17,293 nucleotides of DNA from a virus. The DNA is taken from the UHGV virus genome UHGV-1701501; one strand, given 5' to 3'. The notes under the pieces were generated by a model. It was not told the origin of the DNA and made no database searches. It worked only from the letters and a program-made list of their open reading frames with translations. Position numbers and translations under genes: made by a program. This document shows, in pieces, positions 6,538-13,948 of this stretch (the stretch's first letter is position 1; every line of letters begins with the position of its first letter).

Positions 6538-6556
6538 AAAAAAACCGCCTCAGCGG
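6538..6556 (-). terminator. Hairpin plus T7 element (terminator-like) directly upstream of the tape-measure ribosome-binding site
   Basis: Minus strand reads CCGC-TGAG-GCGG then TTTTTTT, then ACGCCCGGAGAAAGGTGA-ATG (H start). Confidence 0.4.
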
Positions 6557-6566
6557 TTCTCATCAT

Positions 6567-7246
6567 TCATGACTGTGCTGCAAAGCTCAGCGCGTCTTCC
6601 AGCGCCGCAAACGGATCCACCTCCGGCTTATCCTCATCCTCGCCCCAGCAAAGCATGGCGTCCTTCAGTGCAACATTCATCCCCTGTGCCCCGAAAACCG
6701 CTTTCACGATCTGTGCATTACGGATATCCCCGCGCTCATCACCCAGCGGGGATACCCTGTCGAACTCCATCCACATCATCGCCTCGCTCGCACTCAGGCT
6801 GTGCCGCAGTTCGGATAAGGTGCGCCCCAGACGGAGCGCAAGTCGCATCAGAAAGCGAATTTCCGGGCGGGCTACTTTTTTCTGGCCGACTCTGCATCAG
6901 CGATCAGTTCCAGTGCCTGACGCAGCAACCGGGCATGTACCGGACCATAGACGGCCAGCACCTGCTCACGGTCGTCCGGAGTGAACACCCGTTGCAGGTC
7001 AGTATCACACAGGACATCGCAGAACAGCGTCACATCCGCTTCCAGGTTACGGCGGGTTTTCGCCACCACCGACAGGGTATCGTCATCCTCTCCATCACCA
7101 TTGAGCACTTCCTGCCACAGATACCAGGCCTCTGCCGAAGGCTCCCGCAGCACCACGCTGACATTTCTCCATTCCGGCACCTTCACCGTTTTATGACGGA
7201 ACCCCGACAGTCTGGCCAGCGCCAGTGTTTTCAGATCTTTTGCCAT
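6567..7246 (-). CDS. Tail assembly chaperone GT fusion made by -1 programmed ribosomal frameshift (G frame 7246..6875, then T frame 6881..6567)
   Basis: Slippery heptamer A_AAA_AAG at the last codons of G (…GCC AGA AAA AAG TAG). My translation of the -1 frame from the slip site reads V A R P E I R F L M R L A L R L G R…, running without a stop into the 93-aa ORF that ends at 6567. Position between major tail and tape-measure genes. Confidence 0.7.
6872..7246 (-). CDS. G: Tail assembly chaperone G (lambda gpG-like)
   Basis: 124-aa acidic ORF directly downstream of the major tail gene, ending in the slippery sequence; SD-like GGCGGATAAGG upstream of the ATG. Confidence 0.8.
   Translation of the reverse strand: MAKDLKTLALARLSGFRHKTVKVPEWRNVSVVLREPSAEAWYLWQEVLNGDGEDDDTLSVVAKTRRNLEADVTLFCDVLCDTDLQRVFTPDDREQVLAVYGPVHARLLRQALELIADAESARKK
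6875..6881 (-). promoter_or_regulatory. -1 programmed frameshift slippery site (A AAA AAG)
   Basis: Heptamer of the X_XXY_YYZ form overlapping the G stop codon; the -1 frame stays open for about 105 codons. Confidence 0.7.
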
Positions 7247-7251
7247 AAGCC

Positions 7252-7968
7252 TTATCCGCCCGCACCATTAACCGTTACCGTACACGCATCAGAGGTAATG
7301 CTCTGCGGCTGTTCTGCAGAATCCGTTACCTCGCAGGTATAAGCCCCCTTATCACCTGACTGCGTATTGGCTTTACTGAAAGTGTCAGTAGTCTGTCCCT
7401 CTACCGGCTGACCATCCTTCTTCCAGGCGTGTTTATAAGGCGGCGTTCCCCCGTTGACACTGACTGACATTGTCAGCAGCGCACCGGTATTCACGGTAAG
7501 TGTCTTCTCCAGATTTTTCACAAACGCCAGCGGTACCACATAGGACACCGGTTTACCCTTCAGGCGAAGTGAAAACGTTGCAGCCACCACGCCGTTGGTA
7601 CCGGATGACCAGGTGTGCTGACGCACTTCCGCCAGGAACTTAAAGCCCTTACCGGACGGAAACTGCACCTTAAACGCATACACCGTGTCATTGTCATAGG
7701 CATCACGCAGGGCGTTCTGGGCCTGATTCAGATAAAAATTACCCGACATGGAAATCTCGGACGACGCCCCCAGACCGTTGATGTTCTCCTGCTCTGTGGA
7801 GCAGAGCGTGGTCACATCAATATCCTGTTTCTGACCGGCGGTGAACTGGACTTCCTTGATGGTGCAGTCCAGGCGCAGATATTCCGCCTTCTCCATGGTT
7901 TCAGCAGTCGCCGGGGCAGATGAAATCATCACCTGCGTCAGCTGTGAGCGTTCATACAAAGCAGACAT
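7252..7968 (-). CDS. V: Major tail (tube) protein with C-terminal Ig-like domain (lambda gpV-like)
   Basis: 238-aa ORF directly upstream of G; C-terminal segment ...PPYKHAWKKDGQPVEGQTTDTFSKANTQSGDKGAYTCEVTDSAEQPQ...TVTV has the Tyr-Trp...Gly-Tyr-Cys pattern of Ig-like domains; strong SD AGGAGG, 4-nt spacer, ATG. Confidence 0.85.
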   Translation of the reverse strand: MSALYERSQLTQVMISSAPATAETMEKAEYLRLDCTIKEVQFTAGQKQDIDVTTLCSTEQENINGLGASSEISMSGNFYLNQAQNALRDAYDNDTVYAFKVQFPSGKGFKFLAEVRQHTWSSGTNGVVAATFSLRLKGKPVSYVVPLAFVKNLEKTLTVNTGALLTMSVSVNGGTPPYKHAWKKDGQPVEGQTTDTFSKANTQSGDKGAYTCEVTDSAEQPQSITSDACTVTVNGAGG

Positions 7969-7983
7969 TCTGCCTCCTGATAA

Positions 7984-8006
7984 TAAAAAACCCGCTCGCG
8001 GCGGGG
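7984..8006 (-). terminator. Hairpin plus T6 element (terminator-like) directly upstream of the major tail gene ribosome-binding site
   Basis: Minus strand reads CCCGCCGCGAGCGGG then TTTTTTATTATC-AGGAGG-CAGA-ATG. Confidence 0.4.
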
Positions 8007-11930: not shown

Positions 11931-11939
11931 AACCTGTTA

Positions 11940-11959
11940 CGGGAGGCGCACGCCTCCCG
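11940..11959 (-). promoter_or_regulatory. Perfect palindrome/hairpin (CGGGAGGCG-ca-CGCCTCCCG) between an SD-like GAGGAGG and the ATG of the small ORF
   Basis: Direct inspection: 9-bp perfect stem; no T-tract follows on either strand, so not a canonical terminator. Confidence 0.4.
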
Positions 11960-11974
11960 TCCTCCTCATCAGAC

Positions 11975-13912
11975 TCAGCCGCCGGACGCACTGCCGTAGT
12001 TCACTCCGGTGATCACCGCCACCGCCGCGGTACGGCGACGACGCCAGTTGATCCAGCGCTCCGCACGGATGGCCACGCTGCCGGTCTGGAACATGGAAAC
12101 CAGCTCCACCGGCGACGGTGTGGTGCTGTCGCCGCCCGGCTCAGACTGCATTTCCAGTGACGCTTCACGGGACATATCCACTGCCACACCGCCGTCATCC
12201 GCCAGATAAATATCCGGGGCATTCACCAGCACCAGCTGGTCACCCACGTACTGGGAGACAATCACCGGCAGCCCCTGGAAGGAGCCACCCAGCAGGGTCA
12301 TGTCCGGGTATTCCTTCTGACCCAGCGCATTTTTACGCATGGACAGTGCCAGGGCATTGGTGCTGGACATCAGCCAGACCGCACCGGTGGGCTGCAGGTT
12401 TGCTGCCACAAACTGTCCAAACGCGGCCTCGGCATCCGCATCCGGGTTACCGGTTGATGCCGTGCCCTTCACATCATGGGTGATGGACGCCGGGGAGACA
12501 TCTGCCACTGCGGCTTTTTTCGGGTCCACAAAGTCTGTGTCCAGACGCGCCACCACCGCTTCTGCCAGCGCATTACGGACCAGCGCATCAGCTGCCGGAC
12601 TGGAAAAACGGATCAGCTCTTCCGTCAGTACCGCAATGGCCGACACCTTCGCATGACTGAAGGTGATGGACTCAAAATCAAACTTCGTCAGGGGTCTGGC
12701 CTTACCCTCCCCCACCCAGCCGGCAGCACCGCCGGACACCTGGGCATGCACGCGGATATTGAACGGCACCTGACGAAGTGCAGGGATCCCGCCCTGACCA
12801 AATCGCCCGATAATGGTCTGCGGACGCAGGTAATCAATAAAGTCCTGCGCATATTCCTGATATTCAGACAGGCTGCCTGCCCACTGTGGGTCCGTGGTGG
12901 TCCCTGCCCCCACCGCCGATTTCAGGACATGATGCAGACGACTGTCATCCGGATACTGACGACGGGCCACTTCCAGGGCTTCAGAGCGGACACCTTTAGC
13001 CGCGGCCAGTGATTTGGCAAAGCGGGCGAAACCAATCCCCTTCTCCAGTTTCTGCTCAACACGGATCACCGGCGCTGAAGCCACCGTGGCCACATTCCCG
13101 TTACCGGCCTGTTTCACCGGCTGTGCCGTGGCAGCCTTACTGGTTTCCAGTTCACGCAGACGCTTCAGGTGCGCATCCACCTGACGGATTTCCGCTGCGG
13201 TGTTGTCGTAGTGCTCTTCCTCTTCCACATCCAGTGTGCGGCCTTCCTCTGCGGCTTTGTTCATGATCTCCTCAAGGGAGGCTGCCAGCGCCGCACGCTT
13301 GTTTTCAAAACTTTTAATCTGTTCACCAGTATTCATTGCTGACTTTTCCTTATGAAAAGAGGTTATTGACTGTGCCGCAGCGCCGGCAGAAGATGCGATT
13401 TTCACCACCGGTTTCCGGTTGCCGGACGCGGCAGAAAACGGGCGGTCGAAAGATTTAATGGTCCGGATGGTGCATTCCGCATTCGCGGGCACGGTGACGG
13501 CAGACACCTCCATCAGCTCCCAGCGCAGAAAATGCAGTCCGCCTCCGTCCAGAAAGGTGTATTCATGGGGACGGAAGCCCACGGACAGCCCCCTGACCAG
13601 CCCGGTCTTAATGGCCGCCCAGACCTCATCCAGCCGGGCAGCCAGTTGCGACGGCATATCCGGTACGGGCTTCACCAGCATTGCCGTGATTTCCAGCCCT
13701 TCGCTGACCCGGCGTACCGTACACTGCCCCACCGGGCGGGAATGGTCATGCTGCCAGAGAAACGGGATCGCACTGCCAAACTCCGCGCCCTCCGGCTCCA
13801 GGATGTCACCATCCCGATCCGGAGAAGGCGTTGACGCAATCCCGGTGATCACCCGTTCATCCTCACTGAAGGATTTCACCGTCAGCAGGGAACAGGCCCG
13901 TTTAAGAGTCAC
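11975..13912 (-). CDS. Fused prohead protease / major capsid protein (HK97 family), 645 aa
   Basis: N-terminal about 160 aa resemble HK97-type prohead protease (…ITGIASTPSPDRDGDILEPEGAEF…); a charged coiled-coil linker (…LEEIMNKAAEEGRTLDVEEEEHYDNTAAEIRQVDAHLKRLRELE…); C-terminal about 350 aa resemble an HK97-fold major capsid protein; GTG start at 13912 preceded by AGGAGG. Confidence 0.85.
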   Translation of the reverse strand: MTLKRACSLLTVKSFSEDERVITGIASTPSPDRDGDILEPEGAEFGSAIPFLWQHDHSRPVGQCTVRRVSEGLEITAMLVKPVPDMPSQLAARLDEVWAAIKTGLVRGLSVGFRPHEYTFLDGGGLHFLRWELMEVSAVTVPANAECTIRTIKSFDRPFSAASGNRKPVVKIASSAGAAAQSITSFHKEKSAMNTGEQIKSFENKRAALAASLEEIMNKAAEEGRTLDVEEEEHYDNTAAEIRQVDAHLKRLRELETSKAATAQPVKQAGNGNVATVASAPVIRVEQKLEKGIGFARFAKSLAAAKGVRSEALEVARRQYPDDSRLHHVLKSAVGAGTTTDPQWAGSLSEYQEYAQDFIDYLRPQTIIGRFGQGGIPALRQVPFNIRVHAQVSGGAAGWVGEGKARPLTKFDFESITFSHAKVSAIAVLTEELIRFSSPAADALVRNALAEAVVARLDTDFVDPKKAAVADVSPASITHDVKGTASTGNPDADAEAAFGQFVAANLQPTGAVWLMSSTNALALSMRKNALGQKEYPDMTLLGGSFQGLPVIVSQYVGDQLVLVNAPDIYLADDGGVAVDMSREASLEMQSEPGGDSTTPSPVELVSMFQTGSVAIRAERWINWRRRRTAAVAVITGVNYGSASGG

Positions 13913-13928
13913 ATCAGCCTCCTGAAAA

Positions 13929-13948
13929 TAAAAAAACCGCCGGAGCGG
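13929..13948 (-). terminator. Hairpin plus T7 element (terminator-like) directly upstream of the protease/capsid gene ribosome-binding site
   Basis: Minus strand reads CCGC-TCCG-GCGG then TTTTTTTATTTTC-AGGAGG-CTGAT-GTG. Confidence 0.4.

Follow-up and report, generated by a model that had tools for sequence, protein, structure and literature searches.

The DNA analysed here, UHGV virus genome UHGV-1701501 (17,293 nucleotides (nt), hereafter the window), is the morphogenesis operon, carried on the minus strand, of a lambdoid prophage of Escherichia coli of the Shiga toxin (Stx) type: over its full length it shares 95-97% identity with Stx1a-, Stx2a- and Stx2c-converting E. coli phages. Four short elements of this operon, T1 to T4, were found to have the anatomy of intrinsic terminators and a non-random placement in the spacers between genes, and such elements are conserved at the same junctions of related phages through a repeated turnover of their sequence. 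They are probably intrinsic terminators at which unmodified RNA polymerase stops and polymerase modified by the antiterminator Q continues, the ribosome-binding sites (RBS) downstream of them forming a separate layer.

An earlier note on this DNA, made from the letters alone, had described three near-identical cassettes, each composed of a hairpin, a T-tract, a Shine-Dalgarno sequence and a start codon, in front of the capsid, major tail and tape measure genes. All three were present on the late strand at the places it gave (T1, T2 and T3, Table 1); T4 was absent from its list. The hairpin type proposed, CCGC-N4-GCGG, applies to T1 and T3, each with a loop of 4 nt, but not to T2, whose loop has 5 nt, and the strong Shine-Dalgarno sequence AGGAGG is found at T1 and T2, while that of T3 is weaker (GGAG). 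Stems consist of 7 pairs in T1 (4 of them GC), 5 GC pairs in T2, 7 to 9 pairs in T3 (4 GC) and 10 pairs in T4, where the T-run reads TGTTTTTG. All four elements thus combine the features of an intrinsic terminator: a GC-rich stem of about 5-14 pairs closed by a loop of 3-8 nt, a U-run located at most 2 nt from the 3' end of the stem and counting at least 6 U in 8 positions, and an untranslated position, in sense orientation, within a coding-strand spacer.

The near-identity of the copies was also verified. TTTTTTATTNTCAGGAGGC occurs exactly, and only, at T1 and T2, and GAACCGCTNNGGCGGTTTTTTTA exactly, and only, at T1 and T3; these patterns were picked after viewing the sequences, and shuffled sequences gave 0 matches to either of them. 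Between T1 and T2, the T-tract/AGGAGG stretch is the same at 18 of 19 nt. T1 therefore looks like the hairpin of T3 fused to the tail of T2. A bidirectional terminator was ruled out, since the opposite strand, as read from the sequence, is devoid of a T-run. What did not hold is the idea that every protein encoded just after a cassette is required in many copies, because the tape measure protein (few copies per virion in lambda) and J, which follows T4, are low-copy proteins; in phage HK446, such elements also stand before adaptor, chaperone and tail-tip genes.

Table 1. Positions of the terminator-like elements and of other features of the window (tails are given from the T-run to the start codon).
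Feature	Position	Strand	Description
T1 cassette	13910..13951	-	between large terminase gene (stop 13976) and protease-scaffold-capsid gene
T1 hairpin	13951-13934	-	stem GAACCGC/GCGGTTT, loop TCCG
T1 tail	7 T 13936-13930; AGGAGG 13923-13918; GTG start 13912-13910	-	
T2 cassette	7966..8005	-	between tail terminator gene (stop 8035) and major tail gene
T2 hairpin	8005-7991	-	stem CCCGC/GCGGG, loop CGCGA
T2 tail	6 T 7990-7985; AGGAGG 7978-7973; ATG 7968-7966	-	
T3 cassette	6517..6559	-	between tail chaperone T gene (stop 6567) and tape measure gene
T3 hairpin	6559-6542	-	stem GAACCGC/GCGGTTT, loop TGAG
T3 tail	7 T 6544-6538; GGAG 6531-6528; ATG 6519-6517	-	
T4	712..745	-	41 nt ahead of the J start codon (680)
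T4 hairpin	745-722	-	ACAGGCATCC-TCAG-GGATGCCTGT, then TGTTTTTGTG
Stem-loop after capsid stop	11939..11960	-	ACGGGAGGC-GTGC-GCCTCCCGT, no T-tract, -17.8 kcal/mol
73-amino-acid (aa) open reading frame (ORF)	11930-11709	-	follows the capsid-stop hairpin, overlaps the portal start; hypothetical in phage Lys8385Vzw
Late operon	918..16197	-	from the ORF list and PHROG assignments
Late-operon gene order			TerS, TerL, protease-capsid, 73-aa ORF, portal (two ORFs), adaptor Ad1, head closure Hc1, tail completion, tail terminator, major tail, chaperones G and T, tape measure, M, L, K, I
J	start 680	-	extends beyond the window edge

The placement of these elements was compared with chance expectation by means of a strict terminator pattern (at least 4 GC pairs, a loop of 3-8 nt and at least 6 T in 8). 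Five matches were found on the late strand, against 0.35 +/- 0.53 expected from dinucleotide shuffles, and 4 of the 5 fell within the 500 intergenic nt that make up 3.1% of the operon (binomial P = 4×10−6). Seen from the side of the spacers, 4 of the 5 that reach at least 44 nt contain a hairpin followed by a T-run, and the fifth is occupied by the stem-loop at 11939..11960. The remaining strict match (3082-3063, minus strand) lies within the coding sequence of the minor tail gene M; its sequence, GGCATGGT-GGTT-ACCGTGCC, then TTTTTATGG, has a terminator shape as good as those of T1-T3.

Conservation was then assessed at the corresponding junctions of close relatives, of two more distant clades of viral contigs, of phages HK446, HK542, Kp4874-4, FSL SP-016 and PAJU2, and of Phytobacter and Leclercia prophages. 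Scans of viral contigs give the closest 80 relatives, so diversity came from queries with distant homologues and from protein searches of a phage collection; a genome-collection scan contributed 3 loci. Of 558 related loci, 553 had a hairpin with its T-tract at the corresponding junction (major tail, 239/243; tape measure, 231/232; terminase-capsid, 83/83), compared with 3.9% of random windows taken from the same loci. From the end of the stem to the start codon, the distance was 17-26 nt in all 553 positive loci. The stems themselves had been replaced many times: about 25 distinct ones were counted in total, with ~8 core types at the major tail junction and ~12 at the tape measure junction, in phages whose hosts span Escherichia to Pseudomonas. 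Examples are CCGC/GCGG, CCTGC/GCAGG, GCCCCAC/GTGGGGC, GCCCGC/GCGGGC, CCTCGC/GCGAGG, CCTCAC/GTGAGG and AGCCC/GGGCT. Through every one of these replacements the T-run abutting the stem was kept (553 of 558 junctions).

Within clades, changes were mostly confined to the loops and to the upstream spacer. T1 was kept in all of the closest 80 relatives, with variation restricted to the loop or preserving a pair as G.U, and its junction carries stems of its own in Salmonella phage SP-016 (CCCGC/GCGGG) and Pseudomonas phage PAJU2 (GAGCCCGC/GCGGGCTT). A hairpin and T-tract were found at the T2 junction of HK446, HK542, Kp4874-4, Phytobacter, Leclercia and SP-016. The comparison of homologous junctions, which the earlier note had proposed as a check, therefore came out in its favour. 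The presence of hairpin and T-tract at the same junctions with some 25 different stems suggests that selection acts on the terminator shape and not on the sequence, and retention of the abutting T-run looks like a signature of selection for termination, and not for a hairpin that only stabilises the message or for a U-rich site that binds ribosomes. In addition, two different stems were found over one identical downstream RBS in some loci. Two rearranged relatives were also seen. In one (L047, IMG/VR), unrelated sequence extends up to the ATG of the major tail gene, so that T2 and its RBS are replaced, which could reflect an insertion or a module swap; in another, a different terminase gene is joined ~70 nt upstream of the capsid start and T1 is kept.

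How such elements would act in the phage cycle can be outlined as follows. As canonical Rho-independent terminators, co-oriented with the late operon and lodged in its few spacers between non-overlapping genes, T1-T4 would form in the RNA a short GC hairpin directly before 6-7 U, and thereby release ordinary RNA polymerase. During lytic growth, polymerase coming from the late promoter and modified by Q would read through them, as is established for Q-modified polymerase at terminators in lambda, and the ~20-kb operon would be expressed. The benefit would be a strictly Q-dependent expression of late genes: polymerase leaking beyond the first late terminator, or starting in the lysogen from spurious promoters or from those of inserted genes, would be halted block by block. 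Residual termination may besides reduce the dose of distal low-copy genes, e.g. tape measure and J. In the RBS layer, AGGAGG would serve the capsid and major tail proteins, both abundant, and a weaker site the tape measure protein, so that strength would track protein abundance. Termination itself, read-through under Q and the selective benefit are inferred. All real genes of the window are on the minus strand (ORF list), and a scan of its late strand for consensus sigma-70 promoters gave 0 promoter-like sites, although weak or non-sigma-70 promoters could escape a scan of this type. In phage 2851, whose capsid protein is 97.7% identical to that of the window, the terminase, head and tail genes come in the same order after Q, stx2 and the lysis genes on a single strand, which is the standard layout of the Q-dependent late operon in Stx phages. 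The late transcript of these phages is under Q antitermination (PMC7547250).

Several observations weigh against this reading. The Q gene and the late promoter lie beyond the window, and Q control was assigned from relatives. Any residual termination at T1 and T2 would work against the phage, since the genes just after them encode its two most abundant proteins. Folding, another check proposed in the earlier note, gave a divided answer: the isolated hairpins of T1, T2 and T3 (-10.3, -7.7 and -10.3 kcal/mol) stand out from shuffles with z = -2.1 to -3.9 (-3.6 for T1), as does that of T4 (-17.8 kcal/mol, z -5.2), but the 59-73 nt contexts fold no better than shuffles (z = -0.1 to -1.8), and energies of -7.7 to -10.3 kcal/mol are weak for terminators. 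Given these context scores, thermodynamics alone cannot single out the sites; position and conservation do. The near-constant distance to the start codon also fits a role in translation, and so does the fact that, where the upstream gene has been exchanged, the spacer has remained attached to the downstream one. In lambda, there is no spacer, and hence no hairpin, at the U/V and T/H junctions equivalent to T2 and T3, and the elements are therefore dispensable for a working late operon. Lastly, pairing was scored after 46 distinct hairpins had been aligned around their loops without gaps, in place of a MAFFT alignment of whole spacers in which stems were out of register. Each of the 7 stem pairs varies at both of its positions, and the fraction of paired cells reaches 95.7%, compared with 74.6% in shuffles and 35-51% with a slid partner column; this fraction is inflated and partly circular because the members were selected by a hairpin finder. 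The independent evidence is the 99% occupancy of the junctions together with the turnover of stems.

The elements could instead be dosage attenuators, at which Q-modified polymerase terminates in a fixed fraction per site, the stepwise fall of the mRNA setting the ratios of virion proteins. This we regard as rather unlikely. T3 does stand where the dose should drop, from major tail and chaperone proteins (many copies) to the tape measure protein (few), at a junction where the element is near-universal in spite of its dozen stems, and weak hairpins suit partial termination; excerpts of the phage L paper moreover propose such a role (bioRxiv 10.1101/2020.10.05.325894). However, the order is reversed at T1 and T2, where low-copy terminase or connector genes are upstream and the two most abundant proteins downstream, and T4 separates two low-copy genes, so that 1 of the 4 positions fits; lambda, for its part, reaches the same stoichiometry without a spacer at U/V and T/H. 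Another view, already raised in the earlier note, is that of translation-start modules marking genes that initiate independently, in which the hairpin would insulate the RBS and the U-tract would be an S1 landing pad for the ribosome. The 17-26 nt spacing speaks for it, although simple compaction of a terminator and an RBS would also produce a fixed spacing. The tails of T1 and T2 are alike and both precede the most abundant proteins, their SP-016 counterparts also resemble each other, the spacer stays with the downstream gene where the upstream one differs, and all cassettes are found where translational coupling is broken. Nevertheless, the hairpin and the RBS evolve separately, since the same RBS sits behind quite different hairpins; T3, T4 and most relatives have an ordinary or weak Shine-Dalgarno sequence; and a pure U-run abutting a GC stem exceeds what a landing pad needs. 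The T1/T2 motif was also rejected as a portable RBS module, as it occurs only before these same two genes among the matches listed (viral contigs). We thus find this explanation unlikely as an account of the whole element; the idea of a shared translation-initiation module stands for the T-tract/AGGAGG part of T1 and T2, and not beyond.

An effect on mRNA stability or processing, in which hairpins block 3'-to-5' exonucleases after cleavage in the U-tract and give the segments different half-lives, termination being incidental, appears improbable for T1-T4. Older work reportedly found that lambda late messages differ in functional half-life, and the stem-loop after the capsid stop codon in the window is strong and lacks a T-tract; it is a different kind of hairpin, not terminator-shaped. 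A hairpin, in some cases with a T-run and in others without, also follows the capsid gene in SP-016, PAJU2, SBP39, lambda and the HK phages, so that stability hairpins probably do exist in the operon. But a 3' barrier needs no abutting T-run, which nonetheless persists at the junctions studied, protection by T1 and T2 would go to segments coding for low-copy proteins, and stems of 5-7 pairs are weak barriers. That the elements have no function of their own, and are chance hairpins, leftover module boundaries or recombination linkers of phage mosaicism, is very improbable. Mosaic breakpoints do occur in these spacers, the context z-scores are unremarkable and an equally good terminator pattern is found within gene M; against this stand the excess of strict matches and their placement, the 99% occupancy compared with random windows, and pairing that is kept through stem replacement. 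Besides, stems differ between clades and therefore cannot act as conserved homology linkers.

Of the functions offered in the earlier note, a terminator passed by antiterminated polymerase is hence the one that fits best, a pure 3' stability hairpin leaving the T-tract unexplained, and its view that terminator-like elements occur within an operon whose expression requires read-through is borne out by anatomy, placement and conservation. Terminators with the RBS as a second layer make the most economical reading. More speculatively, each ~40-nt unit might be a dual-purpose punctuation mark, which would stop unmodified polymerase and then, when read through, load ribosomes for the next coupled gene block; in that rather unlikely case, its hairpin would insulate, its U-rich stretch would be where ribosomes land, and its Shine-Dalgarno sequence would be tunable. 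If so, phages from those of E. coli to those of Pseudomonas would have retained the same four or five block boundaries through the turnover of every stem nucleotide.

Terminators within the late operons of lambdoid phages are a decades-old observation, and T1-T4 are members of this known class of elements; what is added here is how strong the comparative signal is and which exact sites it designates. The closest annotated cases are HK446 (NC_019714) and HK542 (JQ086373). In both records the homologous site ahead of the major tail gene is labelled 'rho-independent terminator', as is, in HK446, the one ahead of the tape measure gene, the counterpart of T3. T2 and T3 are thus positional homologues of annotated terminators. 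Further ones are annotated in both phages after the portal, capsid and major tail genes and before an I-like gene. Their layout is the same (GC hairpin, T-run, RBS and start codon, in the same strand sense, with 17-21 nt to the start), and the flanking genes are homologous (identity of 48-63% for the tail terminator, 49-67% for the major tail and 40-59% for the tape measure protein). Their stem sequences differ from those of the window. Head gene order in the HK phages is portal-protease-capsid, whereas a protease-capsid fusion, here a protease-scaffold-capsid protein of 645 aa, precedes the portal in the window. In the Stx-phage records examined, the elements are unannotated.

Lambda (NC_001416) has a hairpin and T-run at the D/E junction (6098-6117), 17 nt before the major capsid gene, and others at E/FI, I/J and J/lom; the order of its head genes is not homologous to that in the window. 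Like T4, an element of this type stands before J or I in lambda and the HK phages. Together with the missing spacers described above, these data suggest elements that are widespread without being indispensable. The P22-like phage L offers a more remote parallel. According to excerpts of the paper describing it, a terminator within its single-promoter late operon is 'not unique to L' and of such terminators 'their roles are not known', the roles suggested being partial termination or the stopping of transcription begun without antitermination (bioRxiv 10.1101/2020.10.05.325894, PMC8022706). As in the window, a predicted intrinsic terminator is found there inside an antiterminator-controlled late operon. 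Phage L differs in being a podovirus, and its structural genes are unrelated; its terminator is at the end of the procapsid module, and these excerpts report no comparative test.

Other RNA elements were noticed near T1-T4. Just upstream of T2, a weaker hairpin, AGGTCAC-GGT-GTGACTT, covers the stop codon of the tail terminator gene (8048-8021, minus strand) and is followed by a long T-rich run; in some close relatives, variants with a TAA stop, the stem is disrupted and the T-rich run kept. At T3, the Rfam covariance model IsrK (RF01394) gave a weak match at 6538-6605 (minus strand), from the last part of gene T through the hairpin and U-tail of T3. T3 was not filed under IsrK because the score was 27.1 bits against a gathering threshold of 50, and the match probably reflects a generic terminator hairpin. 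IsrK is an Hfq-binding small RNA (sRNA) of Salmonella prophage Gifsy-1, which lies in the antiterminator region of its prophage, whereas the stretch matched here is the 3' end of a coding gene. Around T4, the I/J spacer (681-917) has 237 nt, versus 60 nt in lambda. Its plus strand, antisense to the operon, carries a near-consensus sigma-70 promoter, TTCACA-16-TATAAT (783-810, 11/12), then a CCCGCAGU...ACUGCGGG hairpin and AUUUUUU, with its end near 912. The product, a candidate antisense sRNA of ~95 nt, would overlap gene I at its 3' end; its fold has z = -2.2, and it matched no Rfam family, the best hit being MicX with 23 bits against 75. In the prophage sRNA literature (Pas sRNAs, the anti-sRNAs AgvB and AsxR, StxS), no sRNA is described at these junctions, and the text presenting the Term-seq dataset of strain Sakai does not cover the T1-T4 sites (PMC7547250).

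Two features of the operon itself deserve mention. The portal is encoded by two ORFs of 454 and 299 aa (11763-10399 and 10402-9503, minus strand) that overlap by 4 nt. As the two-gene portal is also present in Lys8385Vzw, SP-016 and PAJU2, the split is probably native, and a frameshift is disfavoured; the single 859-aa portal in the phage 2851 record may be an annotation matter or a fusion in that phage. Phage 2851 also carries, at 25670-26837, an Arc-like repressor and an Ant antirepressor inserted between tail genes L and K, where the gap in the window is 5 nt.

In practical terms, the sites defined here allow a better annotation of Stx-phage records. The comparison points to an unusually strong selection, with ~25 independent stem replacements at the same junctions, and this turnover of stems with the shape kept argues that the elements matter for the fitness of the phage or of the lysogen. 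In Stx prophages, a tighter or looser Q-dependence of the late transcript would bear on the leaky expression of late genes and of the toxin.

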